From assembly GCA_041687495.1 (NCBI GenBank), contig JAWLBR010000002.1:11349-75348 (forward strand): 64,000 bases of DNA, written 5' to 3'. Below, piece after piece: positions 1 through 55,163 of this stretch (the first letter of the stretch is position 1; each line of letters starts with the position of its first letter). Below the pieces are notes generated by a model. It was not told the origin of the DNA. It searched no databases and saw only the letters and a list, made by a program, of their open reading frames with translations. Both the position numbers and the translations under genes were made by a program. This DNA is from Limnochordia bacterium. Its GTDB lineage: Bacteria > Bacillota > Limnochordia > DTU087 > JAAYGB01.

Positions 1-919
1 GTTCAGATCCGTCGGCGGGCACGGCCTCAGATAGCTGTTCGCTGCGGTAGTAGGCAGGAAGCAGCGTCCCGTTGAAGTGGGCACCCGGGTTACCATCCTT
101 GTCTAGGGCAATGACGGCAAAGAGCGCTTTGGCCTTCGTACCTTGAGTGACAATCTCCTGGCAGGCCTCTTGGACTGCCAGTCCTCTAGCCAGTTTCTCC
201 ACCACAGCCCGGGTTGCTCCCAGTTTGATGATCCCTTCGCCATAGCCCGTGGCCGAAGCGCCACCTTCCACGGCAGCGAAGGTGCCAGCTCCAATGATGG
301 GGGTGTCTCCAACTCGACCCGGCAGTTTTTGCGGGATACCGCCGGTAGAGGTTCCGGCAACAATCAATCCGCTGGAGTCAATCGCGACGGCGCCAACGGT
401 GGAATAGCTCCGATGCTTCTTGCGAATTTCCTCGTACCGCTCCATTAGCTGGCGCATGCGTTCGGGTACTTTGCCAAGCTGCTCTTCCAACAGCCCCCGC
501 GCGTAGTCTGTACCAGGATCGTATTCGGGGAATCCGTAGCTGCGGGCAAAGAGTTCTGCTCCCCTACCCACCATCAGAACGTGAGGAGTCTCTTCCATTA
601 CAAGCCGGGCTGCGCTAATGGGGTGCTGAACATGTTGGATGCAAGCCACAGCACCAGCATTTCCTGTGGAATCCATGATCGACGCATCCATCTCGATTTC
701 ACCAAAAAGATTGTAGAAGGACCCCGTACCGGCGTCAAATATTGGGTCATCCTCCAGGTGGTGCACCGCAGCGATCACCGCTTCCAGTGCAGAATCTGTT
801 TTTTGCAGTGCCTCGTATCCAACTTCGCAGGCCTGTTTAGTTCCTGCGTAGCGTTTTCCCTTAATCTCGGGGGCTAGGTCAGTGTCTTCCATGCCACCAT
901 GGACAATAATTGCCTTCAT
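1..919 (-). CDS. Isoaspartyl peptidase / L-asparaginase (Ntn-hydrolase, plant-type asparaginase family), partial (C-terminus beyond left edge)
   Basis: Minus-strand ORF running off the window start. ATG at 919-917 is preceded by a GGTGAT RBS. The translation MKAIIVHGG...GTGS...TVGAVAIDSSG contains the Thr-nucleophile motif of the asparaginase_2 family. Confidence 0.8.
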   Translation of the reverse strand, partial: MKAIIVHGGMEDTDLAPEIKGKRYAGTKQACEVGYEALQKTDSALEAVIAAVHHLEDDPIFDAGTGSFYNLFGEIEMDASIMDSTGNAGAVACIQHVQHPISAARLVMEETPHVLMVGRGAELFARSYGFPEYDPGTDYARGLLEEQLGKVPERMRQLMERYEEIRKKHRSYSTVGAVAIDSSGLIVAGTSTGGIPQKLPGRVGDTPIIGAGTFAAVEGGASATGYGEGIIKLGATRAVVEKLARGLAVQEACQEIVTQGTKAKALFAVIALDKDGNPGAHFNGTLLPAYYRSEQLSEAVPADGSE

Positions 920-2759: not shown

Positions 2760-3590
2760 TTAGCTGGCTGTCTGACTCAACTGCTCCCGCAGCCGCTCCT
2801 CAAACTCAATGGCGCTGGTCGGGCACTTCTCGACACAGAGACCGCAGGCGGTGCACTTGTCGTAGTCAATGCTGGCCACGTTGTTGGTGACAGTAATGGC
2901 TCCGGTGGGGCAGACCCGCTCGCAGGCCTTACAGCCGATGCATCCCACTTGGCAGGCGGCCTTCACCTCTTTACCCTTGGCTAGCGACTTACACCGAACG
3001 TGCACAGGCTTGATCTCATCGACTAGGTCAATAATGCTGCGGGGGCAGGCCTTCACGCAGTTGCCGCAGCCAGTACAAGCGATGGGGTCAACCTCAGGTA
3101 GACCGTTTTCTCCCATGTGAATAGCATCAAAGGGGCAGGAGGCGACACAGTCCCCCAGGCCAAGACAGCCAAACTCACAAGCTTTAAAGCCACCGCCCAC
3201 AGCTTGCGCTGCTCGGCAGGTCTGGATTCCTGTGTATTCGGCCCGCTTCAGGGCTTCTTTGTTCCCACCATGACACTGGACTTGGGCGATGAGGCGCCCG
3301 CCGGCCCCAGATAGGTCTACGCCCAGGATTGCTGCCATGGCACTTTGCTGATCGGAGTTGGACACGGGGCAGCCGGTAACCGGACTCTCACCTTTGGCCA
3401 AAGACTCCGCAAACTGCTGGCAGCCAGCAAATCCACAGCCGCCACAGTTGGCCCCAGGAAGAGCCTCCACTAATTGCTCAATTTTCGGATCAGTCTCTAC
3501 CGCAAACTTCTTGGAAGCATATGCCAGACCGAGCCCGAAGGCAGCGCCTAAGATCCCGGTGCTAACAATTGATACAACAACAGTGCTCAT
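2760..3590 (-). CDS. rnfB: Rnf electron transport complex subunit B (polyferredoxin with N-terminal membrane anchor)
   Basis: 276 aa with multiple CxxCxxCxxxCP 4Fe-4S motifs and an AGGAGG RBS. It is the last gene of the rnfCDGEAB array. Confidence 0.9.
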   Translation of the reverse strand: MSTVVVSIVSTGILGAAFGLGLAYASKKFAVETDPKIEQLVEALPGANCGGCGFAGCQQFAESLAKGESPVTGCPVSNSDQQSAMAAILGVDLSGAGGRLIAQVQCHGGNKEALKRAEYTGIQTCRAAQAVGGGFKACEFGCLGLGDCVASCPFDAIHMGENGLPEVDPIACTGCGNCVKACPRSIIDLVDEIKPVHVRCKSLAKGKEVKAACQVGCIGCKACERVCPTGAITVTNNVASIDYDKCTACGLCVEKCPTSAIEFEERLREQLSQTAS

Positions 3591-7792: not shown

Positions 7793-7960
7793 AACGAGAC
7801 CCTCCTCGTAAGCTAAAAACGCGCAAAAACCCCTAGCTGCTCTTACGCATTTAAACTAGGTCAAAGCTATAGAATGAAACAGATATTAATTCGAGACAGC
7901 TTCGGTGGGATCCTTGTGTCTTGGGTGGAAATGTTTAGGGAAAAGGCGAAAGTTATTTAT

Positions 7961-7987
7961 TTCACAATAAATGTGAAATCAATCACG
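7961..7987. promoter_or_regulatory. CRP/FNR-type palindrome (TGTGA-N6-TCACG) plus adjacent TTCACA half-site in the AT-rich rnfC/osmC divergent intergenic region
   Basis: Read directly from the sequence: ttcacaataaaTGTGAaatcaaTCACg. This region sits upstream of rnfC (minus strand) and osmC (plus strand). Confidence 0.3.
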
Positions 7988-8303
7988 ATTGGGCGTGGAA
8001 ACCGACACGTAGGTGTGGAGCCGGCTATCATCGGGTTTGCCGAAGCAAGGCTCTCCACAGGATGAGAGATCTGCTCTTACGGGGATATGTAAATTTGGAA
8101 ACATGTCCCTAAAAAAACACTTATGCTTGGTTACTTCTATGTACACGAGTAGTTTCCTGTTGCACATAGGGTGAACGCAATCACAATGTCCACTTTTCAG
8201 GTACATCTTCTGCTTGGGGCGGTGGCATCACAATTGGGTTTGAGAAATTGGGAGTTCGGGCACAAGTAAGTACTGAATATCTAAGTGATAGGGGGATGGA
8301 AGT

Positions 8304-9736: not shown

Positions 9737-10999
9737 ATGGACGAAAGAAAAGCTGACAGTAGGGACGAGAATACAATGGATCTTGCCCAGCTGTCTGGCC
9801 GGATCGAGAGCCTCCAGGATAGAATAAAGAAACTGGTGGAAATGGCCGGCGGGATTCAGAGCTACCTAACTGAGGCGGCTGAACCCTGGACTGAGCCTGT
9901 ACCCGACTTGGGAGCTGAAGACTTCAGCGTCCAGGAGCTGGATGTGGAAGCCAATACCCATTCATTTCTCGATGATTGGGATCGCGACCTAGCGGCTGCG
10001 CCCAAGCCTATCGGGCCTCAGTCTCCAACCCAGCCCACTGGATACGGCAGACCAAGGTCGGGCGGCGAAATCCCAGTGGATCAGGCCTCAGATGCTAACG
10101 AAGGCAGCCAACGGGAACTGGCGGCGCAGGAGATCGACATAGAGATTGCGGCTAAGGAACCCGAACTGCATATCGCACAGCCCAGCCATGTCTGGGTAGA
10201 AGAAGCTAATCCGATTCAGGATACATGGGAGTCTACTAACTATCCCACCAATCGTCAAGAGAGTTTTGCTGCTGGGCATGAGATGAATGTGGAAAAAGCG
10301 CACCCGTTGACAGGCGGGAATGCTCCGGATCACGTTGCAGATAGATCCACCGACGTAAAGGTAGAGAAAGCTGCCCCAACCGGAGCGCAAGGTGTGTTGG
10401 ACGATGTAGAAGCCAACAGATCTCAAGAAGTAGAGCTTGTGCAGGCAGATCCGGAGAAAGCAATGGCCCAAGATGCAACATCCAAGGAAGTCGAGGCAAA
10501 GGAGGAGTCGGCGCCGGAGGTAGTAATTGAGGAAGAAACGGTAGAGGAAGCTATGGTACAGACGGAGTCAGCGCCGGAGGCAGTAGTTGAGGAAGAAACG
10601 GTAGAGGAAGTTATGGTACAGACAGAGTCGGCGCCGGAGGTAGTAATTGAGGAAGAAATGGTAGAGGAAGTTATGGTACAGACGGAGTCAGCGCCGGAGG
10701 TAGTAGTTGAGGAAGAAGCAGTAGAGCAAGCTGTGGTTGAGGAAGAGTCTGCCGCCGAGCTGGCGGTAGACGAGAACACGACGGCGGAAGGCGAGAAGCC
10801 GGAAACAGCTGTTGCCGAGACCGAGGGTTCCGAGGGCGAGTCCTCGGCGGCATCGACGACAATCAGTGGGCAACATTCGGCGACTGCCGAGGATGTCAAG
10901 CCGGCCAAAGCAGCCAGTGCTAAGTCCGATAAAGGTGCTAAGCAAAGCGGTACACTCCAGTGGAAGCTGCCGCCTCCGATGAGCCGTCGACATCGGTAG
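9737..10999 (+). CDS. Highly acidic Glu/Val-rich repeat protein, unknown function
   Basis: 420 aa with a strong RBS (GGGGGGGAAAAG). It has an N-terminal coiled-coil-like segment, then a low-complexity acidic region containing four perfect 20-aa repeats (ESAPEVVIEEETVEEAMVQT), and a basic C-terminal tail. Confidence 0.6.
   Translation: MDERKADSRDENTMDLAQLSGRIESLQDRIKKLVEMAGGIQSYLTEAAEPWTEPVPDLGAEDFSVQELDVEANTHSFLDDWDRDLAAAPKPIGPQSPTQPTGYGRPRSGGEIPVDQASDANEGSQRELAAQEIDIEIAAKEPELHIAQPSHVWVEEANPIQDTWESTNYPTNRQESFAAGHEMNVEKAHPLTGGNAPDHVADRSTDVKVEKAAPTGAQGVLDDVEANRSQEVELVQADPEKAMAQDATSKEVEAKEESAPEVVIEEETVEEAMVQTESAPEAVVEEETVEEVMVQTESAPEVVIEEEMVEEVMVQTESAPEVVVEEEAVEQAVVEEESAAELAVDENTTAEGEKPETAVAETEGSEGESSAASTTISGQHSATAEDVKPAKAASAKSDKGAKQSGTLQWKLPPPMSRRHR
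10501..10770 (+). repeat. In-frame 60-bp tandem repeat, about 4.5 copies, inside the acidic protein gene
   Basis: Direct reading shows units at 10501-10560, 10561-10620, 10621-10680 and 10681-10740, plus a partial unit. They differ by only a few substitutions. Confidence 0.9.
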
Positions 11000-11213: not shown

Positions 11214-11480
11214 CTAGTCCATTGGTAATAGTCCGTACCTAATGGCCCAAAGTGCCACTTTTGTGCGGTTTCGGGATCCGATTTTACGATAAATGTTGGT
11301 TATATGGTTCTTAACGGTGTGCTTGCTGATAAACAACTGTTCGGCGATCTCTTCATTAGACAGGCCTTTGGCGATCAGCTTGAGCACTTCCCGTTCTCTC
11401 ATGGTCAACTGAGCAAAGCGCTGCGCACGTGCATCGTCATTTGCCGCCAACGAGTGACACCTCCTTGACTGCCAGTGCAA
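11214..11480 (-). CDS. LuxR/GerE-family helix-turn-helix transcriptional regulator (small, single-domain)
   Basis: C-terminal sequence REREVLKLIAKGLSNEEIAEQLFISKHTVKNHITNIYRKIG is a canonical LuxR-type HTH. Its size fits the GerE-like regulators of spore formers, though the exact start is uncertain. Confidence 0.8.
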   Translation of the reverse strand: MHWQSRRCHSLAANDDARAQRFAQLTMREREVLKLIAKGLSNEEIAEQLFISKHTVKNHITNIYRKIGSRNRTKVALWAIRYGLLPMD

Positions 11481-11656
11481 GACTGAATCATGGGAAAAGA
11501 TGGATCACCGGAGTGCTTAGTCCATAGTATGTGAGATGCCTTAAGGCGGAACTAGGAACCCTTTCCCCATTTCCCCCTGCGCGCAAAGGCGGTCAATTCT
11601 GGGTCAATCTGGTACATTCTTAAGCAAACAGAGGTTTTACCAAACATGGATTCGTG

Positions 11657-11866
11657 TTATCCACACCTGTGGATAACTTGTGAATAACTGTGGAAAAGTT
11701 GAGGACCAAGGAAACTCAGCCCCGTGAAAACCCTTGAGAAAGGGGGTTTGCATCGATTTTGACTTGTGGATAGCAATTGTGAACATACGACGGCAACCTG
11801 TGGATAACTAGCCCTTGCGATCGGGCAATTCCCCAGATATTGGGGGTTTTTGCCAGATGTGGATAA
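11657..11866. promoter_or_regulatory. Cluster of 6-7 DnaA boxes (TTATCCACA and near-consensus variants) in the luxR-adh intergenic region
   Basis: Exact 9-mers at 11657-65 (TTATCCACA), 11668-76, 11799-807 and 11858-66 (TGTGGATAA, the reverse complement). One-mismatch variants lie at 11679-87, 11688-97 and 11765-73. The first two boxes form a perfect 9-2-9 palindrome. Confidence 0.6.
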
Positions 11867-12012: not shown

Positions 12013-13047
12013 ATGGGCAAGATTTTGCGGGCGAACCTAATCGAGCCAGAAAAGTTTGTGCTAGAGCAAGTAGAGGCACGGTCGCCGGGAGCAGGCGAAG
12101 TCCTGGTTAAGGTGAAGTTGTGCGGCATCTGCGGCAGCGATATTCATGCCTATCACGGGACTCATGCGTTTATCGATTGTCCCATTGTCCTAGGTCATGA
12201 GTTTGCTGGGACGGTTGGCGCCCTGGGGGAAGGCGTGGATGCATTTGAGGTGGGCCAAAAGGTAGTAGTAGAACCGTCTTTGGTCTGTGGCGAGTGTTAT
12301 AACTGCAAGACGGGCCGGTACAACGTCTGCGAGAATCTGAAGGTAGTCGGCTGTCAAGATACCGGTGCCTATGCCCAGTCGATTGTGGTTCCTGCAGCGA
12401 AGGTGATCCCGATCCCCGAGGATATGGAGTATGACAGGGCAGCATTGGTTGAGCCCTTGGCAGTGGGTGTGCATGCAGTCCACCGGGCGCGGATGGAAGA
12501 GGGAGCTCGGGTTCTGGTCTTTGGGGTGGGGCCGATCGGGCTTCTAACTTTGGTGGCGGCAAAAAGTATGGGCGCAGGTAAGGTTTTGGCTGTTGACGTC
12601 TTGGACTCCCGTCTGGAACTAGCCAAGCAAATGGGTGCAGATGCGGTGTGCAATCCGACCAAGCAAGACCTACTTGGCGCGATAACTGAGGTCTTTGGGC
12701 CGGAACGAGCTGACATCAGCTTTGAATGTTCAGCCTCTGAACCCGCTCTTAACCAGGCCATTGACCTTGCGCGAAAAGGAGCCACCATTGTCCAAGTAGG
12801 GTGTTTTGGACCTCCGGTGACCATTAAGAACATGAGCTATATACAGGAACATGAGCTGATGATCGTGGGGACGATGATGTATATGCAGCCGGATTATCAA
12901 GAGGCAATAGATATTCTGCACAACTCCAGGCTTCCCCTTGAGGTGCTCATCACCCACCGCTTCTCTCTGGAAGAGGTGGCCGAAGCTTTTCGCATGCTGG
13001 ATGAGGAAAAGGCAAAAGTGATTAAGGCGGTAATTGATATCAGTTAG
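12013..13047 (+). CDS. Zn-dependent alcohol dehydrogenase (MDR family; sorbitol/threonine-dehydrogenase-like)
   Basis: Motifs CGICGSDIH and GHEFAG, the structural-zinc CGECYNC motif, and a GVGPIG Rossmann motif. ATG at 12013 has a GGAGGAG RBS. Confidence 0.85.
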   Translation: MGKILRANLIEPEKFVLEQVEARSPGAGEVLVKVKLCGICGSDIHAYHGTHAFIDCPIVLGHEFAGTVGALGEGVDAFEVGQKVVVEPSLVCGECYNCKTGRYNVCENLKVVGCQDTGAYAQSIVVPAAKVIPIPEDMEYDRAALVEPLAVGVHAVHRARMEEGARVLVFGVGPIGLLTLVAAKSMGAGKVLAVDVLDSRLELAKQMGADAVCNPTKQDLLGAITEVFGPERADISFECSASEPALNQAIDLARKGATIVQVGCFGPPVTIKNMSYIQEHELMIVGTMMYMQPDYQEAIDILHNSRLPLEVLITHRFSLEEVAEAFRMLDEEKAKVIKAVIDIS

Positions 13048-13080
13048 GTGTGGACCGCTGGGAACAAAGGAGGAAAATCG

Positions 13081-14451
13081 ATGCACTGGAGTGCCCAAGC
13101 GTTAGCCGGCAGTGAAGTGCAATGCGAGTGTGGTCGACTGCACAAAGTGCCGATTCGGACGATCAGAACGGGAGCCAAGGTACTGGAGTACCTTGGCCAA
13201 GACGTGACGGAGCTGGGACTGCCCCGCAGGGCAATCATCGTCGCCGATGAGACTACCTTCGAGCTAGCGGGAAGAGTTGTTGAACAGCAGTTGCGGGCAG
13301 CCAATGTCAGCGCAGAAACCGTGATCCTCAGGCCTCTTCGTGCTTTTGGGGGCCGAGAATGGGTTTTGCCCGACGAGCGTAGTCTTGGCCAAGCGCTGAT
13401 GTCAGTAACCGACGAGCCATGCTTTCTGGTGGCGATTGGCTCCGGAACAGTAAATGATGTTGTCAGGTTTGTCTCCCACAAGACGGGCCGCACCTTTGTC
13501 AGTGTTGGGACGGCGCCATCGATGGACGGGTACGCTTCGACGGTGGCAGCGCTGCTGACGGGCAGTTTCAAGAAGACCTTACCTGCTACTTATCCCACGG
13601 CCATTTACGTTGATGCCGATGTACTGGCTAGCGCTCCGTTGGAGATGGTGGCGGCCGGATTTGGTGATTTGGTGGGGAAGTCGGTGGCTCTGGCGGACTG
13701 GATGGTGTCGCACATCCTGAACGGCGAATACTATTGCCCTACCATCTGGTCCCTGGTAGAGCAGGTATTGCAGATGGCCATCGCCGACGTTGGCGCCCTG
13801 CAGCGGCGCGATCCGCAAGCATTGGTTAGTCTGACGGAGGGGTTAATTCTCTCCGGGGTGGCGATCTTGATGTTCAACGATTCCAGGCCAGTGTCGGGAG
13901 CTGAACACGAAATGGCCCACTTCTGGGAAATTCGTGGAATTCCTGAGGGCAGCCTCTTTTACCACGGGGCTAAGGTAGCTGTTGCGACTCCCATAGTCAC
14001 CAAGTTTTATCAGGAGCTGCTGGCAAGGAATCCATCGGAAATCCCCTGGGACAAAGTTCGCACCACTCGGCCCAGCATCGACCAGTACAGTAAGCAGCTG
14101 GAGCAGGATTTTCGGGGGGCATGGCAAGCCATCGCTACCCCTACCTGGCGAGAGAGTAAGGCAGTGGAATTCGAGCGAGACAGCCAGAGCCTCCTAGTCA
14201 GCAAGTGGGAGGAGATCAGAGCAAAGGTGCCTAGTTCGCTCCTTGACGTTGACAGAGTCCATCGGGATTTAGCGACGCTGCAGGCTCCTGCTACTCCACA
14301 GGAACTGGGGCTAAAGCGGGAATGGCTGGAGGCATCGCTGCGCAGTGCCAGGGAGATGAAGCCCCACCGCTACACGGTATTGGATCTGGCTGCCGAAATG
14401 GGCTGTCTAGAGGAGATCAGCGAATCAGTTTTGTCATGGATCTGGCCGTAG
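13081..14451 (+). CDS. Glycerol-1-phosphate dehydrogenase (AraM/EgsA)-like member of the Fe-ADH/DHQS superfamily
   Basis: 457 aa with a GSGTVNDV nucleotide-binding motif and a conserved Asp/His region typical of the glycerol/G1P dehydrogenase group. RBS is AAAGGAGGAAAA. It is translationally adjacent to the ADH gene. Confidence 0.6.
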   Translation: MHWSAQALAGSEVQCECGRLHKVPIRTIRTGAKVLEYLGQDVTELGLPRRAIIVADETTFELAGRVVEQQLRAANVSAETVILRPLRAFGGREWVLPDERSLGQALMSVTDEPCFLVAIGSGTVNDVVRFVSHKTGRTFVSVGTAPSMDGYASTVAALLTGSFKKTLPATYPTAIYVDADVLASAPLEMVAAGFGDLVGKSVALADWMVSHILNGEYYCPTIWSLVEQVLQMAIADVGALQRRDPQALVSLTEGLILSGVAILMFNDSRPVSGAEHEMAHFWEIRGIPEGSLFYHGAKVAVATPIVTKFYQELLARNPSEIPWDKVRTTRPSIDQYSKQLEQDFRGAWQAIATPTWRESKAVEFERDSQSLLVSKWEEIRAKVPSSLLDVDRVHRDLATLQAPATPQELGLKREWLEASLRSAREMKPHRYTVLDLAAEMGCLEEISESVLSWIWP

Positions 14452-14557
14452 TAAGCCTAGTAATAGAATGACTACGAAATGCAGGTAATGAAGAAGATTT
14501 TGGCCGCTCAAGCTGGGGCAATAGCCAAGGCTGGAGATAGGGTGATTTCCACTTCCC

Positions 14558-14614
14558 TTGACAGTTGGCTTAGTCAAGGGTAGAATAAATATAGGATACG
14601 GCAGTAGGGTATCC
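14558..14614 (+). promoter_or_regulatory. Sigma-A-type promoter (TTGACA-17-TAGAAT) plus downstream GC-rich inverted repeat (GGATAC-N9-GTATCC), a candidate CsoR-type operator for copZ
   Basis: Read directly: TTGACA at 14558-63, TAGAAT at 14581-86, and the palindrome at 14594-14614 sitting at the predicted transcription start. Confidence 0.4.
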
Positions 14615-14675
14615 GGAGCGACTTGGTGGAACATTGCAGCAGCACCGGGATTTCACCGTCGAAGGAGGGGCTACT

Positions 14676-14882
14676 ATGGCACTTAGCAAGGTGTATCACG
14701 TGAGGGGAATGAGCTGTAACCACTGCGTCATGGCAGTGAAAAAGGCTTTGACGAGTATTGATGGAGTGAACTCGGTTGACGTGGAGTTGGCAACAGGCCA
14801 AGTCACTGTGAACTTCACCGACGCGGTTGACGACGCAGTCGTCGCCGAGGCTATACAAGACGCTGGTTATCAGCTGGCATAG
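14676..14882 (+). CDS. copZ: Copper chaperone CopZ (heavy-metal-associated domain)
   Basis: 68 aa with a GMSCNHC (MxCxxC) motif. RBS is GAAGGAGGGG. Confidence 0.85.
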   Translation: MALSKVYHVRGMSCNHCVMAVKKALTSIDGVNSVDVELATGQVTVNFTDAVDDAVVAEAIQDAGYQLA

Positions 14883-15038
14883 CTGGACAGATATGGGTAC
14901 AACATACTAACGACCTACTTAAGCCCCAAGAGCGTACAACCGCCCTTGGGGTCTTTGCGCGCTCGGTATTTGCTGTCAGTACATGGTTAGGGCGACTTAA
15001 TGCAAGAATAGAGGCGATAGAATAGAGGAGGCGGTAGT

Positions 15039-15722
15039 TTGTTCAAGCATGAAAAGCAGCTGCTGAATATGGTAAGGGTGCAAGCTCCCAATCCGACCTA
15101 TGCTTCGATGCTGTCTGAGCAGTTGGGGGGCCCGCAGGGTGAACTGAAGGCGGCAATGCAGTACTTGTCGCAGAGCTTTCGGATCAAAGATAAAGAGATC
15201 AAGGACGTATTCATGGATATCGCTTCCGAAGAGCTGAGCCACATGGAAATGGTGGCGACCGCAGTAAACCTGCTTAACGGACACGATGTCGACTCGATGG
15301 CGGTGCAGTCTGGTCACATTGAAAGCCAAGTTCTCACGGGACTCAACCCCTTCCTAGCTAATGGCTCTGGCTTTCCTTGGACCGCAGCTTATGTCAATGT
15401 AACGGGAGATCTGGTGGCAGACATTCTTTCGAATATCGCGGCTGAGCAGCGGGCTAAGGTGGTTTACGAGTACCTCCATCGCCAAATTAACGATCAGTAT
15501 GTGCGGGAAATGATCGACTTCCTACTCAATCGAGAGGAAGCGCACAATACCCTTTTCCGTGAAGCTCTGGCCAAGATCCAGGATACCGGGTCCAATCGGG
15601 ACTGGGGAGTGGACGAAGATGCTCGGCTGTATTTTGATCTGTCCAGCCCAGGCAAGTACTTTGACCTAAATAACCCGCAACCACCTGCCTTCCAGAACCC
15701 AGACCAGCAGCCGTCTCACTAG
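15039..15722 (+). CDS. cotJC: Spore coat protein CotJC-type manganese catalase family protein
   Basis: TTG start with an AGAGGAGG RBS. The N-terminal sequence ...EKQLLNMVRVQAPNP...GGPQGELKAAMQYLSQSF...EELSHMEMV matches the CotJC/Mn-catalase di-metal ligand pattern. Confidence 0.8.
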   Translation: MFKHEKQLLNMVRVQAPNPTYASMLSEQLGGPQGELKAAMQYLSQSFRIKDKEIKDVFMDIASEELSHMEMVATAVNLLNGHDVDSMAVQSGHIESQVLTGLNPFLANGSGFPWTAAYVNVTGDLVADILSNIAAEQRAKVVYEYLHRQINDQYVREMIDFLLNREEAHNTLFREALAKIQDTGSNRDWGVDEDARLYFDLSSPGKYFDLNNPQPPAFQNPDQQPSH

Positions 15723-15870
15723 GAACTCGTGGAATAACAGCGCAAGCTTAACCTAGCACAGCTAACACAAGGGGCTATCCCGATTTGAAATCAGGATAGC
15801 CCCTTAGTGTGCCTCAATGCAGCGTCTCCCGGTGGGATAAGCTAACCGGAATAACGGAATGTGATCTCGC

Positions 15871-18198
15871 CTATAGTTCTACCCCGAGCCACCAGCCCGT
15901 GGGATCGTCGCCGTCGGGGAATCCTCTTCCCCATGAGTGGCCCAGCGCAATGGCCGCTCCTGGCGTGATCGAGTAACGCCCTTTGATTCCGGTTATCGTC
16001 TGGGCAATGGAACCGCTTTCTGAGTCAACTCCAGATTTTTGCTTGTAGTGCGCTGACAAGCGAACGCGATCTGATAGATCCTTATGGGCCGCAAGTCCAA
16101 CCGTGGTTGAAGTCTCTGGTCCCGGTCCATATTTCCGTTCATAGGAGGGTGCCAGTGATACCAAACGGACAAGCTCAAGCTGAGCTCCAAGAGTATAGTA
16201 TTTGGCGGTGTCCTGCCCAAGCCACTCCCTGCCGGTGCTTCCCGTTATCTGAGACAGATACACCGAAGCGTCGGGGGAAATCTGTCGCGGCTGCCATAGC
16301 CCCTTGAGCTCCAGAATCCGCTCACCTGGGGTTTGACTGAGGTTGACTTGGGTTGTCAGAGTTGGCGATAGTTGCCAGGATAGCTGGGAGTCCCCCTGCC
16401 ATTCCCACTGACCAGACCACTGCAGGGCAGCACTGCTGAGTAAAGATAAGCGGTTTGATGGCTTATACTCCAGGGAGGCCCCGATACTGCTGCCAAGCTG
16501 AGACTGTGCCCAAGCTGTCCCTCGGTTCTGGTACACGCTGCCATCTAGGCTCAGCCGATACCTGTCACCACTGTGGGCTAAGCTAAGGAGCAAGGAGTCC
16601 TTGCGATCAACCAAAACACTCTCGCCCGGAACTCTGCTGTCTTCACGCCTCACGCCCAAGAAAATCTGATTTCCTGCCCCAATATGGCGAGAGACATCGG
16701 CTCCGTAGAGGCGGGTGTCTAGCCTGTCGTAGGTGGCGTAGCCAATTTGGGTGTGCTCTTTGCTGCCCCAGCCGTAGGTGAAGCTCTGATTCCAGGAGCC
16801 GCTAGAGGTGACAGTGACCCAGTTGTCCCGGCTACGTTCGCCTAGATACCCCGGATCCTTCGGGGCCCAGTTAGACGTTCGATTCTGGCCGACCCCTATA
16901 CTCCAAGCATTGCCCAAGTCCTTTACCAAGGAGATCCTCGCAGACCCAGACTGCAGTCTGCCGGCGTATTCTGCAAAGCTGTCATCTGTGGTGAGACTGT
17001 ATCCCGCACTAAGTTCAGCACGGTTCCAGCGTTTGAGGCCATCTAGGGACCAACCGCGCTCTCCGGGACTGTACTCAGAGCCGGGAAAGTCAGGGAACGC
17101 TGTTCCATACCGAAATGCCTGTCCAGATAAGCGGACAGAGTCACTTAACCATGTTCCAATCTGAGCTGACCAGGCGGTGGAGTCGGGGTGTTTTTGCTCT
17201 AGAAACAGCGGCATAGCGGCTTCCAGCTGCACCCGCTGTCTTCCGTCATCCCAGCCTCCCGAAATTGTGGCTACCTGCTTAGGAGAGCGGGGATCTGTGT
17301 CACTTAGGTATCCCAGCGCTCCGTTGTAGGGGCCACTTTGCACTGCAAGCTCACCACCGCTGACCCGGTAACCGCCACCTTCCTGCGTCTGATACTCATA
17401 GGTGACAAATAGGCGCCCTTCGTTGCTGCCTACTCTGGCGGCGGGGGACTCAGCCAAGGACAGAGCCCCACTAACGTAGTCCAGCGTGTAGTCTGGAAAG
17501 AACATATCGATGGTCTGGCTGGGATCACCCGGCGGATGGACAGTAATCTGAACCATTTCACTTCCGGGAACGATGTTTTCCTCGGCCAACCGATAGTGGA
17601 GTTTTCCGCTGTTGATAGAAAAGGACTCGGCATTTGGCTTTTGGTGTACAATGCCCGAGAATCCGCTCAGCTGGACATTACCATACTTACCCGATGCGTG
17701 TAGTCCCGCCACAGGCCGGCTGTGTGAGAACAGGCTGGATGGTGTTGTGCTCCATCTGGTCTGCCACGCCGCTGCCCCCGAGGGAGCATTAGCCGAACCC
17801 AGCCAGGAACCAGCAGGCTGCGCCGTGTCGTCTTTCCCCTTAGAGATGTTCTGCTCTTTGAACCATGCTCGCCAGCTATCGGTATCGCTGTCGCCGTCGG
17901 CTTTTGCCCATCCAGAGTCGTACTCCAGGCGAAATTCGACACCGGGAGCAGTATCCCCAGAGAGGATAAACCCATAGTCATCGCCAGCTGTGTGCGAGGT
18001 TTTCCATACTTCGGCTTGGTCTAGACTTAAGCTGACCGCTGGTGCCGCTGGCAAACCCTCGACAGGAGCCATTGGCGTGTTCAGACCGCCTGCAGCCGTA
18101 ACTGGCGTCGATACCGCCAGCGATAGCAGGAGGGCCGCTGTCGAAAGCCTTAACCTGCCCTTGGGCTTGCTTCCCAAGCTTCCTTTCCATATATTCAT
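15871..18198 (-). CDS. Large secreted beta-rich protein, putative outer-membrane beta-barrel
   Basis: The ATG at 18198 is preceded by an AAGGGGA RBS. It has a signal peptide (KPKGRLRLSTAALLLSLAVSTPVTAAG). It is rich in W, Y, G, S and D, with many alternating hydrophobic/polar strand-like segments through to the C-terminus. Confidence 0.5.
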   Translation of the reverse strand: MNIWKGSLGSKPKGRLRLSTAALLLSLAVSTPVTAAGGLNTPMAPVEGLPAAPAVSLSLDQAEVWKTSHTAGDDYGFILSGDTAPGVEFRLEYDSGWAKADGDSDTDSWRAWFKEQNISKGKDDTAQPAGSWLGSANAPSGAAAWQTRWSTTPSSLFSHSRPVAGLHASGKYGNVQLSGFSGIVHQKPNAESFSINSGKLHYRLAEENIVPGSEMVQITVHPPGDPSQTIDMFFPDYTLDYVSGALSLAESPAARVGSNEGRLFVTYEYQTQEGGGYRVSGGELAVQSGPYNGALGYLSDTDPRSPKQVATISGGWDDGRQRVQLEAAMPLFLEQKHPDSTAWSAQIGTWLSDSVRLSGQAFRYGTAFPDFPGSEYSPGERGWSLDGLKRWNRAELSAGYSLTTDDSFAEYAGRLQSGSARISLVKDLGNAWSIGVGQNRTSNWAPKDPGYLGERSRDNWVTVTSSGSWNQSFTYGWGSKEHTQIGYATYDRLDTRLYGADVSRHIGAGNQIFLGVRREDSRVPGESVLVDRKDSLLLSLAHSGDRYRLSLDGSVYQNRGTAWAQSQLGSSIGASLEYKPSNRLSLLSSAALQWSGQWEWQGDSQLSWQLSPTLTTQVNLSQTPGERILELKGLWQPRQISPDASVYLSQITGSTGREWLGQDTAKYYTLGAQLELVRLVSLAPSYERKYGPGPETSTTVGLAAHKDLSDRVRLSAHYKQKSGVDSESGSIAQTITGIKGRYSITPGAAIALGHSWGRGFPDGDDPTGWWLGVEL

Positions 18199-18601
18199 TG
18201 GCAAATCCCCTTGCTGTTTTGGTGTAGTTAATGCTGCGTTTGGTAGCTAGTAGAAGTGCTAGTTCTGTCCTAAATACACTGGTAGCAGCGTCAAATGGAG
18301 TTGCTGTGTATCGATACAAAGGGACATTATCATATGAATTCAGCATATTCCAAAAGAAAGGCGACATCAAGGGCTAGTCCTTGCCAGTTGGTTGAAAGCA
18401 AGCTTTGCCAATGCACTAGAAGATTCCCGCTATATCAGTATCTGGGGGATAATGCTAGGTTTTGGGGGTTGTTCCAAGTTTGCAGTCTCCAGTAAAATGA
18501 TAAGTGATTAGACCACACTTTGACACAGAAGGGGTGTTTGAACCAGAAACAATGTAAGGAAAAAAACTAGAGGGGGATTCTTTCTGAAGAAGCTAACCTA
18601 T

Positions 18602-19732
18602 TTGTCGACGTTAGTCCTGGTCTCATGTCTAGTTCTTACGATGTCTTCTTTAGCGGCGGCAGCTACGTATCACACGGTTAGCCGGGGTGACACCCTGTAT
18701 CTGATCGCCCAAAGGTATGGAGTCTCCATCGCAGCTTTGCGCAATGCCAACAATCTGCGCAGCGATGTACTCTATCCAGGCCAAACACTGGTGGTTTCAT
18801 CAGTCGGCGGGGGTTCTGGCTCCAGTTCAGGGACGCAATACGTAGTCAAAGCTGGAGATTCCCTGTGGCGGTTGTCAACTCAGTTCGGAGTCTCGATAGC
18901 TGCGATCCGTTCAGCTAACGGATTGGTCAGCGATGCTCTGCATGTAGGTCAGAAGTTGACCATTCCCGGTTCCCATTCCGGAGGTGGACAGAGCGGCAGT
19001 ACTACTTATACTGTAAAGTCTGGCGACAGTTTGTACCTCATTGCCCAGCGATTTGGTATCACGGTTAACCAGATCAGACAACTAAACGGACTGAGTTCCA
19101 ACACCATCTATGTGGGGCAGACACTTAAGGTCTCTAGTACTGGGGCAAGTAACCCAGTACCAGCTCCGCCGACCCAGCAGGTTGTGTATGTTCACTCCGT
19201 TAAGTGGGGTGAGACCCTAGAGAGCATTGGGCGCAACTATGGAGTGACTGCTCAGGCGATTGCTTCAGCAAATATGCTGACAAGCTATACGGTGAAATCA
19301 CCGATGGCACTCATCATTCCAGGCCCAACCAAGAATCACGCCGGGCTGACTGGACTCTACCTTAAGCCAGGGATGTCTGTGGCAGATTTTCATCGGTTGG
19401 CTAGGATGACCTATGCTGAAGCTGGCGCTGAACCGTATAGCGGTCAAGTGGCTGTGGCAGCGGTGATCCTCAACCGGATTGCAAGTCCGAAGTTCCCTAA
19501 CACTATGGACGGGGTTCTAAAACAGGCATGGCAATTTGAGCCTGTATCAAATGGCTACTACTACAACTGTGTACCTTCGTTAAGTGCATACAAGGCAGCT
19601 CTAGACGCTGTGAATGGAGTAGATCCCAGTCGGGGAGCACTGTTCTTCTTCAACCCGGCCAAGATCACCAACCAATGGCTGCTCAGCAAGCCGTTTGTAT
19701 ACCAGGTTGGCTCACACGCCTTCGCATACTAG
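18602..19732 (+). CDS. sleB: Spore cortex-lytic enzyme SleB/CwlJ-family hydrolase with four N-terminal LysM domains
   Basis: Four LysM repeats (TYxVxxGDTLxxIAxxYGVSIAALRxAN), then a C-terminal Hydrolase_2 (SleB) domain: ARMTYAEAGAEPYSGQVAVAAVILNR...GALFFFNP. A better start may be the CTG at 18584 (see findings). Confidence 0.85.
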   Translation: MSTLVLVSCLVLTMSSLAAAATYHTVSRGDTLYLIAQRYGVSIAALRNANNLRSDVLYPGQTLVVSSVGGGSGSSSGTQYVVKAGDSLWRLSTQFGVSIAAIRSANGLVSDALHVGQKLTIPGSHSGGGQSGSTTYTVKSGDSLYLIAQRFGITVNQIRQLNGLSSNTIYVGQTLKVSSTGASNPVPAPPTQQVVYVHSVKWGETLESIGRNYGVTAQAIASANMLTSYTVKSPMALIIPGPTKNHAGLTGLYLKPGMSVADFHRLARMTYAEAGAEPYSGQVAVAAVILNRIASPKFPNTMDGVLKQAWQFEPVSNGYYYNCVPSLSAYKAALDAVNGVDPSRGALFFFNPAKITNQWLLSKPFVYQVGSHAFAY

Positions 19733-43174: not shown

Positions 43175-44668
43175 TTGAACGTACTCATCGGAAAGTTCAA
43201 AGAAGTATTGTTTGCCGTACTTCCGACCACCGTTATTGTCTTGGTTTTGCATTTTACCCTTACTCCTCTTGACGCCCCCATGCTGGTTCGTTTCCTTGTC
43301 GGCGCAGTCCTGATTGTCCTCGGTCTTTCTGTGTTCCTATTTGGAGTGGACCTTGGCATTAGCCCCATTGGTCACTTGATGGGGGGAACACTGACCAAGA
43401 GCAACAAACTCTGGGTCGTGGTGGCCGGTGGGTTGATCCTGGGATTTTTCATTTCGATAGCGGAACCAGATCTGCATATTTTGGCTGGGCAAGTTGATTT
43501 TGTCACCTCCGGAGTGATTTCCAAGCTTAGCATCGTTGCGGTTGTGTCTGTTGGCATCGCCGTCATGCTCGCCTTGGGACTGGTTCGGATCGTGTACAAC
43601 ATTCCCCTGTACAAAATACTGACGGTACTGTATGCCATCGTATTTGCGTTAGGCGTATTCACTTCACCAGAGTTTCTGGCGATCTCCCTCGATGCTTCTG
43701 GAGCTACAACCGGGGCAATGACAGTGCCGTTCATTTTGGCGCTGGCTCTTGGTGTCACAGCACTCAAGAAGGATCCTAAGGCTTTAGAAAAAGACAGCTT
43801 CGGTTTGGTTGCAATTGTCTCCGCGGGTGCTATAATATCAGTTATGTTAATGAGTATTCTCTCGGGTGTAGACAGAGATTTTGCTGGGCCTGCATCCGAG
43901 GTGGCTTATGCAGCATCGATTTTTGCACCCTTCGGACAGAAGCTGCCCACAGTCGTTGAAGAAGTGTTTGTCGCACTCATCCCCATCATTGCAGCATTCC
44001 TCATCCTGCAATATGTATCGTTTAGGCTACCGGGGAGAAGCGTTAGGAAAATCCTAACGGGCCTAGTGTATACGTTCACAGGGTTGGTGCTGTTCTTGGT
44101 GGGCGTAAACGCAGGCTTCATGGATGTCGGAACTTTTGTAGGATATCGTCTCGCATCGCTGGACAACAAAGCTTTGGTAGTAGGCCTCGGTTTTCTCATA
44201 GGTCTGGTAACAATACTGGCAGAGCCGGCTGTTTACGTTTTGACGACACAGATAGAAAACGTTACCAGTGGATACGTGAGGAGGAAGATTGTCCTTCTGG
44301 CACTGTCCTTGGGAGTTGGCATTGCCGTGGCACTATCGATGCTTAGGATCATTGTTCCTGGAATTCAGCTATGGCACTATGTCCTTCCTGGTTATGTCCT
44401 AGCGATCACGATGACCTACTTTGCGCCAAAGCTCTTTGTCGGCATGGCCTTTGATTCAGGTGGAGTTGCTTCTGGTCCCATGACTGCCACTTTTGTGTTA
44501 GCCTTTGCTCAAGGCGTCGCACAGGCCATTGAAGGGGCAAACGTTGTGGTCGACGGGTTTGGCGTCATTGCCATGGTGGCGATGACACCATTGATCACGC
44601 TGCAGATTTTGGGGCTGATTTTCAAAGCAAAGTCTGGAAAAGAGGGAGTGGCAGCAGATGGACAATAG
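43175..44668 (+). CDS. DUF1538-family integral membrane protein, internally duplicated (two DUF1538 halves fused)
   Basis: 497 aa. TTG start after AGGAAGTGAG. The N-terminal half (KEVLFAVLPTTVIVLVLHF...) is echoed by the second half (VEEVFVALIPIIAAFLILQYV...). Polytopic. Confidence 0.55.
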   Translation: MNVLIGKFKEVLFAVLPTTVIVLVLHFTLTPLDAPMLVRFLVGAVLIVLGLSVFLFGVDLGISPIGHLMGGTLTKSNKLWVVVAGGLILGFFISIAEPDLHILAGQVDFVTSGVISKLSIVAVVSVGIAVMLALGLVRIVYNIPLYKILTVLYAIVFALGVFTSPEFLAISLDASGATTGAMTVPFILALALGVTALKKDPKALEKDSFGLVAIVSAGAIISVMLMSILSGVDRDFAGPASEVAYAASIFAPFGQKLPTVVEEVFVALIPIIAAFLILQYVSFRLPGRSVRKILTGLVYTFTGLVLFLVGVNAGFMDVGTFVGYRLASLDNKALVVGLGFLIGLVTILAEPAVYVLTTQIENVTSGYVRRKIVLLALSLGVGIAVALSMLRIIVPGIQLWHYVLPGYVLAITMTYFAPKLFVGMAFDSGGVASGPMTATFVLAFAQGVAQAIEGANVVVDGFGVIAMVAMTPLITLQILGLIFKAKSGKEGVAADGQ

Positions 44669-45323
44669 CCCTGACCAGAAACAGTTTGAGCTGATGTGCG
44701 TAGTGGTGGATTTTGGCTCCGGAAGTAAGGTAATGAAAATCGCAAGGGAACACGGAGTGACAGGAGGAACCATCTGCTTAGGGTTGGGGACTATTCGCAG
44801 CTGGCTGTTAGAGCTGCTTGCCATAACAGAGGTTAGGAAAGAAATTGTCCTCATGGTTGCCGAGAAAGTGGTGGCGTACAACACTCTTGAGCAGCTGAAT
44901 AAAGATCTGAAGTTCCACAAACGTGGTCATGGAATAGCGTTCAGTACATCTGTGAAGAGTTTCATCGGGGCTGTCGATGGCAGTAGCAGTGCTTCCGAGG
45001 AAAGCAGAGGTGAGGAGAACCCAATGCACAGCGTTGTTTTTGTAGTAGTTGATAAAGGTAAAGGTGAAGAAGTTATTGACGCGGCCCGGAAAGCCGGTGC
45101 CAGAGGCGGTACCGTGATTAATGCCAGAGGCTCGGGTATCCACGAAGCCACTACGCTGTTTTCAATGGCCATAGAGCCCGAAAAGGAAATCGTGATGGTT
45201 ATCGCGAAAAATGAGCTGATTGAGGGTATCGTCACCTCGGTGCGGGAGAAGTTACGGATTGATGAGCCGGGCAACGGTATCATGTTCGTTCAGGATATCA
45301 ATAAGACATACGGGCTGTACTAG
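44658..45323 (+). CDS. Tandem P-II-like (GlnB-superfamily) signalling protein, two P-II-like domains
   Basis: Repeats ELMCVVVDFGSGSKVMKIAREHGVTGGTICLGLG and SVVFVVVDKGKGEEVIDAARKAGARGGTVINARGSG. Overlaps the DUF1538 gene by 11 nt. Confidence 0.65.
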   Translation: MDNSPDQKQFELMCVVVDFGSGSKVMKIAREHGVTGGTICLGLGTIRSWLLELLAITEVRKEIVLMVAEKVVAYNTLEQLNKDLKFHKRGHGIAFSTSVKSFIGAVDGSSSASEESRGEENPMHSVVFVVVDKGKGEEVIDAARKAGARGGTVINARGSGIHEATTLFSMAIEPEKEIVMVIAKNELIEGIVTSVREKLRIDEPGNGIMFVQDINKTYGLY

Positions 45324-54653: not shown

Positions 54654-55163
54654 ATGCGCAGATACGTTGGCGACCGCGGCTTTAGCCTAGTGGAATTGAT
54701 GCTGGCATTGTCGCTCTTGGCATTCGTCATTGCCATATCATCTGGATACTACGTTAGGAGCGCGCAAGTATTTCGCGATGCTGATCAACAATCGAGAGTT
54801 CAGGTTGAGGTGACTCGAGCAGTGAGCTTTATCAGCACCGAAGTGAGAAATGCTGTCGAGATTGAAGTGTTGAGTCCAGCTGCTCTTCAAGCTCGGGATC
54901 CGGCAAGTAGTTACATTTTTGTGGATAACGGCGCGTTAAGGCGCTGGAATGCATCTGGAGAGACGATAGTGGCTGAGCACGTAGCAGGTGCCCAATTCGA
55001 GCTGATTTCCCATCGAGAGGCCACGACTCTAGAGTTTACGCTGCAGGTGGGAGGCCGGCTGCGTGAACTGCAGACAAGATCTGAAGTGCTGCTGAACAAT
55101 ATCACAGAGGCTAGTCCAACTCTGAATCCGGAGAGGGTCTTGCGTTACAAGAGGGCAAACTAG
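54654..55163 (+). CDS. Type IV prepilin-like protein (pseudopilin)
   Basis: Leader MRRYVGDRG|FSLVELMLALSLLAFVIAI with Glu at +5. 169 aa. Confidence 0.7.
   Translation: MRRYVGDRGFSLVELMLALSLLAFVIAISSGYYVRSAQVFRDADQQSRVQVEVTRAVSFISTEVRNAVEIEVLSPAALQARDPASSYIFVDNGALRRWNASGETIVAEHVAGAQFELISHREATTLEFTLQVGGRLRELQTRSEVLLNNITEASPTLNPERVLRYKRAN

Follow-up and report, generated by a model that had tools for sequence, protein, structure and literature searches.

The locus described here raises a simple question: what is a dense group of DnaA boxes doing between a regulator gene and an alcohol dehydrogenase gene, in a 64-kb stretch of DNA (the whole sequence analysed, hereafter the window) that carries no dnaA? 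Four exact copies of TTATCCACA and three boxes with one mismatch lie within 210 bp (11657-11866), and a rescan recovered all seven within the stretch given in the preliminary description of this DNA:

11657..11665, + strand: DnaA box 1, exact TTATCCACA, the sole box in the + orientation
11668..11676, - strand: DnaA box 2, exact; the + strand reads TGTGGATAA
11679..11687, - strand: DnaA box 3, one mismatch, TTATTCACA; the + strand reads TGTGAATAA
11689..11697, - strand: DnaA box 4, one mismatch, TTTTCCACA; the + strand reads TGTGGAAAA
11765..11773, - strand: DnaA box 5, one mismatch, CTATCCACA; the + strand reads TGTGGATAG
11799..11807, - strand: DnaA box 6, exact TTATCCACA
11858..11866, - strand: DnaA box 7, exact TTATCCACA, with the start codon of the alcohol dehydrogenase gene 146 nt downstream

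Boxes 1 and 2 together form the perfect 9-2-9 palindrome of 20 bp that had been noted earlier and is confirmed here (TTATCCACA-cc-TGTGGATAA). Boxes 2-4 follow in tandem, with start-to-start distances of 11 bp (box 2 to box 3) and 10 bp (box 3 to box 4), which is about one helical turn.

The number of boxes is far above what the composition of the sequence predicts. Exact boxes occur five times in the 64-kb window, compared with 0.43 expected from shuffles, none of 100 shuffles reached five, and four of the five fall within the 210-bp cluster. Taking the rate outside the cluster as the background, the Poisson probability is about 5e-14 for seven boxes with at most one mismatch in 210 bp and about 5e-12 for four exact boxes in the same length. 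A secondary cluster was defined as DnaA boxes (TTATNCACA, at most one mismatch) clustered in an intergenic region at a density well above background; here, seven boxes, four of them exact, were found in 210 bp of a 562-bp divergent intergenic region. The fifth exact box of the window (54920-54928, - strand) is isolated and lies inside a pilin-like gene (54654-55163) whose product has an N-terminal methylation motif; this gene belongs to a block with few Pfam hits at 51.8-55.2 kb.

The gene calls agree with the earlier placement of the cluster between a divergent GerE/LuxR-type gene and a pair of genes encoding an alcohol dehydrogenase (ADH) and a protein resembling sn-glycerol-1-phosphate dehydrogenase (G1PDH):

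11214..11450, - strand: GerE-like stand-alone LuxR-type HTH regulator, 78 aa (Pfam GerE, 2.5e-23); left neighbour
12013..13047, + strand: Zn-dependent alcohol/polyol dehydrogenase, ADH (Pfam ADH_N and ADH_zinc_N); right neighbour
13081..14451, + strand: sn-glycerol-1-phosphate-dehydrogenase (G1PDH)-like gene, downstream of ADH

The GerE-like gene starts with a TTG codon at 11450, preceded by a strong RBS (AAGGAGGTG), and its homologues in relatives are likewise called as 78 aa. The product consists of the Pfam GerE domain only and so matches the stand-alone LuxR-type HTH form of about 74 aa represented by GerE of B. subtilis. Against PDB structures, the match to GerE (1FSE) has an E value of 4.6e-12 and ranks below the VpsT and VraR domains. 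Further to the left are the rnfBAEGDC operon (- strand), osmC, queT and the gene of an acidic repeat protein; to the right, ADH and the G1PDH-like gene are followed by copZ, a CotJC-like manganese catalase gene, the gene of a SleB-like cortex hydrolase, transporters and other genes. The presence of the CotJC-like catalase (15039-15722) and of the SleB-like protein (18602-19732), which has four LysM domains and a Hydrolase_2 cortex-lytic domain, is consistent with a spore-forming host.

Several other genes of the region deserve mention. The acidic protein (9737-10999, + strand) is a very acidic, Glu/Val-rich protein of 420 aa with no Pfam or NCBIfam match, and its gene carries, at 10504-10737, a 60-bp (20-aa) tandem repeat present in 3.9 copies; in relatives, the protein is encoded at a syntenic position but varies in length (309-408 aa). 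Another protein without a Pfam or NCBIfam match, of 777 aa and with a signal-peptide-like N-terminus (15871-18204, - strand), is conserved in the related loci L001 and L002 at 724-794 aa. Genes for DUF1538 membrane proteins are paired with P-II-like genes, with one such pair in the window (43175-45323) and two tandem pairs at 12106-16226 of the related locus L064. No tRNA, rRNA or Rfam family was detected anywhere in the 64-kb window, which belongs to a contig of 80.9 kb from an uncultured Bacillota genome.

The most immediate reading of such a cluster would be a chromosomal origin, or half of a split origin, after oriC had moved away from dnaA. The layout of the boxes is indeed like that of an origin or a dnaA promoter, and the flanking genes lie mostly on the - strand to the left and mostly on the + strand to the right. 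In Firmicutes, oriC is usually adjacent to dnaA and dnaN. The preliminary description had found no dnaA, dnaN or rpmH in the window, and this was confirmed across its 64 kb, over the 11.6 kb that lie left of the cluster and the 52 kb that lie right of it; the same three genes are missing from the loci of 15 relatives, which extend as far as 10 kb from the cluster in each direction. The other features expected of an origin are absent as well. There is no AT-rich unwinding element, as A+T does not exceed 62% in any 40 bp of the intergenic region. The highest A+T content of the window, with G+C falling to 28% per 60 bp, occurs instead in the divergent rnfC-osmC intergenic region (7793-8303), and this stretch, at about 7.9 kb and 3.5 kb from the cluster, contains no DnaA boxes. 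A basal unwinding system (BUS) consists of a DnaA box followed by at least three DnaA-trios within 16 bp (PMC8287927), and a scan by these criteria found no such arrangement beside any of the seven boxes. Per-gene GC skew was 0.168 to the left and 0.114 to the right of the cluster for genes on the + strand, and -0.018 and 0.001, respectively, for genes on the - strand, which gives a strand-corrected replication component of about +0.075 on the left, where only about 8 kb of genes are available, and about +0.058 on the right. The replication component does not change sign at the cluster, and the + strand is the leading strand throughout the window. The cluster is not oriC; the origin reading is already largely refuted, and we consider what is left of it highly improbable.

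A plasmid or phage origin was also considered and rejected, given that blastn detected nothing similar among 72,556 plasmids and 50,697 phages and that synteny with chromosomal genes is conserved.

If the boxes have a function, they should have been maintained where the same locus occurs in other genomes. Relatives were found by protein searches with the flanking genes, which gave three further lineages beyond the window: L001-L003 (the MAG GCA_012727955.1 and two ENA assemblies), whose G1PDH-like protein is 75% identical to that of the window; L064-L067, whose ADH is 72% identical; and L077-L080, whose GerE-like protein is 95% identical. All three have the same order of rnf, queT, acidic protein gene, GerE-like gene, intergenic region and ADH, and in all four lineages, the window included, a box cluster sits between the GerE-like gene and the ADH gene. 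L001 has seven boxes (five exact and two with one mismatch), L077 has eight (five exact and three with one mismatch) and L064 has five (three exact and two with one mismatch), or six if one box with two mismatches is counted. The conservation check proposed earlier for this locus thus came out positive in L001, L064 and L077.

The conservation is concentrated in the boxes themselves. In a three-way alignment, L001 and L064 agree with the window in 94% and 79%, respectively, of the box columns, against 44% of the other intergenic columns in both, and the difference between box and non-box columns is significant in each (Fisher P of 6e-15 for L001 and 8e-8 for L064). Box 1 is invariant in the window, L001 and L064 and exact in L077. 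Box 2 is exact in L001 but carries two mismatches in L064 and one in L077, while box 3, which has one mismatch in the window, is exact in all three other lineages. Box 4 is kept in L001 and reads TGTGAATAA in L064 and L077. The least conserved is box 5, of which just TGTGG is retained in L001 and L064; the stretch around it turns over, with TGGGGATAA found 19 bp ahead of box 6 in L001 and three boxes found there in L077. Box 6 is held in place as cTGTGGATAnCT in L001 and L064, and L077, a lineage that was not aligned, has an exact box in the corresponding stretch. Finally, box 7 is exact in L001 (8808), L064 (7080) and L077. The four-box array and boxes 6 and 7 are, therefore, positionally stable while the middle boxes turn over, and conserved boxes in diverged flanks together with turnover in the middle are the pattern expected under selection for DnaA occupancy. 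Judging from these alignments, selection has kept the boxes of the cluster in the related lineages.

This pattern also bears on the idea that similar 9-mers have simply accumulated here by chance or neutral drift and have no function. Considering the Poisson probabilities of about 5e-14 to 5e-12 and the selective conservation of boxes in several lineages, against 44% identity around them, we regard that explanation as practically negligible; the conservation of the boxes refutes it.

The other genes of the neighbourhood do not all share this history. In each of the four close lineages, the cluster is followed on its right by ADH. A link between the cluster and the G1PDH-like gene was rejected, as this gene is absent downstream of ADH in L064 and L077 and a homologue of 61% identity (L004) lies in another context without boxes.

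More distant homologues of the GerE-like protein, at 75-78% identity, were found in L070/L071 and L072/L073. These loci are of a spore-coat type, with YutH/CotS-family kinases and glycosyltransferases, and both genes flanking their boxes differ from those of the window. They carry a reduced array of three to four boxes, TTATCCACA-gg-TTATCCACA-gaa-TGTGGATAG, directly upstream of a HAD-phosphatase gene; the regulator gene is about 2 kb away, beyond two other genes. Read on the opposite strand, this array has one box facing tandem boxes, as in the window, and L072 has one additional box with one mismatch; the counterpart of box 1 carries one mismatch in the L070/L072 array. Boxes 5-7 are absent from L070-L073 and are present only in lineages with ADH as the right-hand gene. 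A second conserved feature accompanies the array:

11624..11646, unstranded: (G/C)CAAACA in two copies spaced by 16 nt, reading TGTTTG on the - strand, on the side of box 1 that faces the GerE-like gene; conserved in alignments A2 and A3

There are two copies of CAAACA in the window and L001, one in L064 and three in L070/L072 (those of L070 at 3075-3125), at a fixed distance from box 1. Given the same layout and the same CAAACA motifs at the same distance (alignment A3), the array of L070-L073 is apparently orthologous to that of the window. With both neighbours changed, the core array seems to persist whatever its neighbours.

Whether DnaA is the protein that binds these boxes was approached through the layout. 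One genome per GTDB species was scanned with a query made of the 9-2-9 palindrome followed by the start of the third tandem box, and 57 loci in many phyla were retrieved. Of these loci, each taken as 8 kb, 23 encode both DnaA signature motifs in a single reading frame, and 26 have at least one marker of DnaA or L34; in most of these, the gene directly adjoins the match. When JGI metagenomes were scanned for the full four-box layout, the sole match was the upstream region of an unrelated dnaA. The recurrence of a head-to-head pair plus a tandem box just upstream of dnaA points to DnaA rather than another protein, and we take this layout to be a standard DnaA assembly platform.

The adjacent gene nevertheless suggests another candidate. 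A perfect 20-bp palindrome lies beside the gene of a dimeric HTH regulator, and operators of the LuxR family are often palindromes of 18-20 bp, so the palindrome and repeats could be read as the operator of a different protein, such as the neighbouring LuxR/GerE-type regulator, with the match to the DnaA box being coincidental. However, the palindrome accounts for just two of the seven sites; the other five, which occur singly or in tandem, fit the universal DnaA consensus and are conserved as 9-mers in diverged flanks. Many unrelated phyla without this regulator also have the identical arrangement upstream of their dnaA. Moreover, the consensus of GerE sites, with its TRGGY core, is unrelated to the boxes. 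The conservation of isolated 9-mers, together with an array that lies 2 kb and two genes away from the regulator gene in L070-L073, argues against an HTH operator, which we consider very unlikely. Box statistics, conservation, the absence of origin features and the dnaA-upstream layout all agree with the earlier classification of the locus as a secondary DnaA-box cluster outside oriC, and we hold with considerable confidence that it is a genuine DnaA-binding cluster of this kind. The physiology proposed earlier, in which the cluster would titrate DnaA or let it act as a transcription factor that couples replication to the adjacent genes or to sporulation, would be compatible with these data.

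The same scan returned further sites away from dnaA. In four genomes (L028 3315-3340, L032 1256, L047 2848 and L052 433; Clostridia and Christensenella MAGs), the head-to-head pair and tandem box lie between a metallophosphoesterase gene and rsmH/mraW, with no dnaA nearby. As rsmH/mraW is the first gene of the division and cell-wall (dcw) cluster, there may be a recurrent secondary DnaA site at dcw. In Desulfosporosinus MAGs (L019 4528-4600 and L040 around 1797), the pair and tandem box, with a further TGTGGACAA, are found between yabQ and divIC; yabQ encodes a spore cortex protein, which makes this array another non-origin site beside sporulation and division genes. The occurrence of the same layout at rsmH (dcw) and yabQ-divIC in other Firmicutes suggests a wider, minable regulon connecting DnaA to division and sporulation.

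If DnaA binds the cluster, its effect would depend on what lies around the boxes. The region between the array and the left-hand gene contains the following candidate:

11524..11559, - strand: putative promoter of the GerE-like gene, GTTCCTAGTTCC, 16 nt, CATACTAT; conserved blocks in alignments A1 and A2

The motif pair, in the form GTTCCTAGTTCC-N16-CATAnnAT, has the same 16-nt spacing upstream of the GerE-like gene in L070. Its CATA-type -10 presumably resembles those of mother-cell sigma-E/sigma-K promoters. The HAD genes beside the array in L070 and L072 are preceded by CATAAGAT or CATATCAT about 30 bp before the RBS. The idea that GTTCC-N15-17-CATA is a recurrent promoter was rejected, as the motif has a single occurrence in the 64-kb window. 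A scan for sigma-A promoters on both sides gave a single weak site, located within the cluster on the - strand, a yield not above that of shuffled sequences, and manual reading revealed no conserved -35/-10 pair for sigma-A. The sigma-E/K-like -10 and the spore-coat YutH/CotS neighbours in relatives point to a link with sporulation that is suggestive only.

Other elements were looked for between and around the boxes. No small RNA, riboswitch or attenuator was found between them, with no Rfam hit at gathering thresholds or at E<=1. A consensus scan flagged one structure:

11830..11851, + strand: small hairpin with T-run just before box 7, doubtful

As an RNA element, this hairpin was rejected since it folds no better than shuffles (z of -0.96, +0.69 and +0.37 in three lineages). 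A conserved small ORF, encoding an Sda-like peptide, was likewise rejected, as the stretches between boxes 4 and 6 and between box 7 and ADH are poorly conserved and rich in indels, one of them of 57 bp.

Taken together, the cluster is probably a site in a divergent promoter region at which DnaA assembles with high affinity; it resembles the DnaA-box clusters (DBCs) of B. subtilis, which act on the genes beside them and also buffer free DnaA. In the mechanism we propose, DnaA would nucleate on the high-affinity four-box array (11657-11697), where box 1 faces three tandem boxes at a pitch of 10-11 bp, a spacing that could support head-to-tail oligomers of DnaA-ATP. From there, DnaA might extend or loop cooperatively to boxes 5-7, so that the complex would cover about 210 bp. 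The strongest DnaA-binding regions in B. subtilis are arrays of boxes, to which binding is cooperative (PMC4447404). Such a nucleoprotein complex would make transcription of the divergent genes dependent on the level and nucleotide state of DnaA. Boxes 5-7 would most likely act on the ADH promoter side, considering that they are found only where ADH is the neighbour, and on the other side, the GerE-like gene has its putative promoter of mother-cell type about 100 bp downstream of the array. Incidentally, every copy of the chromosome would also keep several DnaA molecules at the cluster and away from oriC.

How much of the selection on the cluster concerns its neighbours is a finer question, and for a main role in cis-regulation of the neighbouring genes, as opposed to replication control independent of them, we see the case as evenly balanced. 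An ADH/polyol dehydrogenase is not an obvious cell-cycle target, which counts against cis-regulation. The survival of the array in L070-L073 with different flanking genes argues for a neighbour-independent role. The cluster would then be a DnaA sink, by titration as in DBCs or as in E. coli datA, or a site of DARS-like nucleotide exchange, with selection acting on DnaA occupancy. This is a less probable but still serious alternative, and the same weight goes to its corollary that effects on adjacent genes would be incidental. It fits the conservation of the core array and CAAACA motifs in L070-L073 despite different flanks, and the box number, which is held at 6-8 while individual boxes turn over. 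In addition, the DARS core is likewise built of one box set against tandem boxes (PMC6868365), and deletion of the DBCs in B. subtilis causes over-initiation (PMC3245932). On the other hand, a single cluster of seven boxes would be a small sink, and boxes I and II of DARS are 5 bp apart, compared with 2 bp for the opposed boxes here and 3 bp in L070. DARS2 and datA also depend on IHF, and DARS2 on Fis as well; to our knowledge, neither IHF nor Fis is found in Firmicutes. Boxes 5-7, furthermore, occur together with the ADH gene, and this suggests that their part of the cluster has a gene-specific role.

A more far-reaching version, which we regard as improbable, would treat the four-box array and CAAACA motifs as an old autonomous module, either a gate on late mother-cell genes or a Firmicute counterpart of DARS/datA that resets the nucleotide state of DnaA. 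If true, a gate on the GerE-like regulator and on spore-coat polysaccharide genes would constitute a replication-to-late-sporulation checkpoint distinct from Sda and SirA, and the function of the module would be new to Firmicutes.

Secondary DnaA-box clusters allow the replication initiator to double as a transcription factor and to buffer its own availability, and they have been studied in few model species only. The cluster described here has stayed at a single locus in several spore-forming, uncultured lineages of Bacillota from anaerobic digesters, which makes it a clean candidate for testing DnaA control of sporulation or coat genes outside Bacillus. Its interest is modest and derives from two sources, this one-locus conservation and the GerE-like regulator as neighbour; no new kind of system emerges from it.

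Comparison with known systems supports this assessment. The arrays upstream of dnaA, in the dnaA promoter or oriC of many bacteria, share the head-to-head pair, the 2-bp gap and the tandem boxes at a 10-11-bp pitch; unlike them, the cluster has no dnaA, unwinding element, DnaA-trios or skew switch. We know of no DARS described in Firmicutes. The core of E. coli DARS1 and DARS2 consists of three boxes, with box I opposite boxes II-III and a 5-bp gap between I and II (Sugiyama 2019, PMC6868365). The likeness lies in one box opposed to at least two tandem boxes, here box 1 (+) facing boxes 2-4 (-), while the gap between the opposed boxes differs (2 bp here) and the flanking IHF/Fis sites of DARS2 have no noted counterpart at this locus. 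E. coli datA and the Streptomyces DnaA-box cluster (Smulczyk-Krawczyszyn 2006, as cited in PMC3245932) are similar in being non-coding clusters of DnaA boxes outside oriC that are able to lower the availability of the initiator; datA differs in its box arrangement and in that it needs IHF and promotes ATP hydrolysis.

The closest likeness is to the B. subtilis DBCs, and the cluster is best assigned, on its sequence features, to this known class of secondary DnaA-box clusters rather than to a new kind of element. An oriC-proximal position of secondary clusters is a tendency in Bacillus and not strictly defining. Ishikawa 2007 is reportedly a further source for the DBCs outside oriC in B. subtilis. 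Six such clusters are known there, yqeG-sda, ywlC-ywlB, yydA-yycS, ywcI-vpr, gcp-ydiF and thdF-jag (Okumura 2011, PMC3245932; Smith & Grossman 2015, PMC4447404), and the deletion of all six leads to early initiation or over-initiation, with only this combined deletion having a clear effect (PMC3245932). In B. subtilis, sda is under positive control by DnaA, and ywlC, yydA and others are under negative control (PMC3245932); a dual role in gene regulation and DnaA buffering is established for the family in that species. The cluster shares with the DBCs an intergenic array of consensus boxes, away from dnaA, in a Firmicute and beside potentially DnaA-regulated genes, and the sda cluster, which links DnaA to sporulation, also has about seven boxes. 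Unlike the DBCs, it is flanked by a GerE-like regulator and ADH, none of the B. subtilis targets. Bacillus species carry their clusters upstream of different genes (Okumura 2011, PMC3245932), whereas the one described here has been held at one locus across several lineages.
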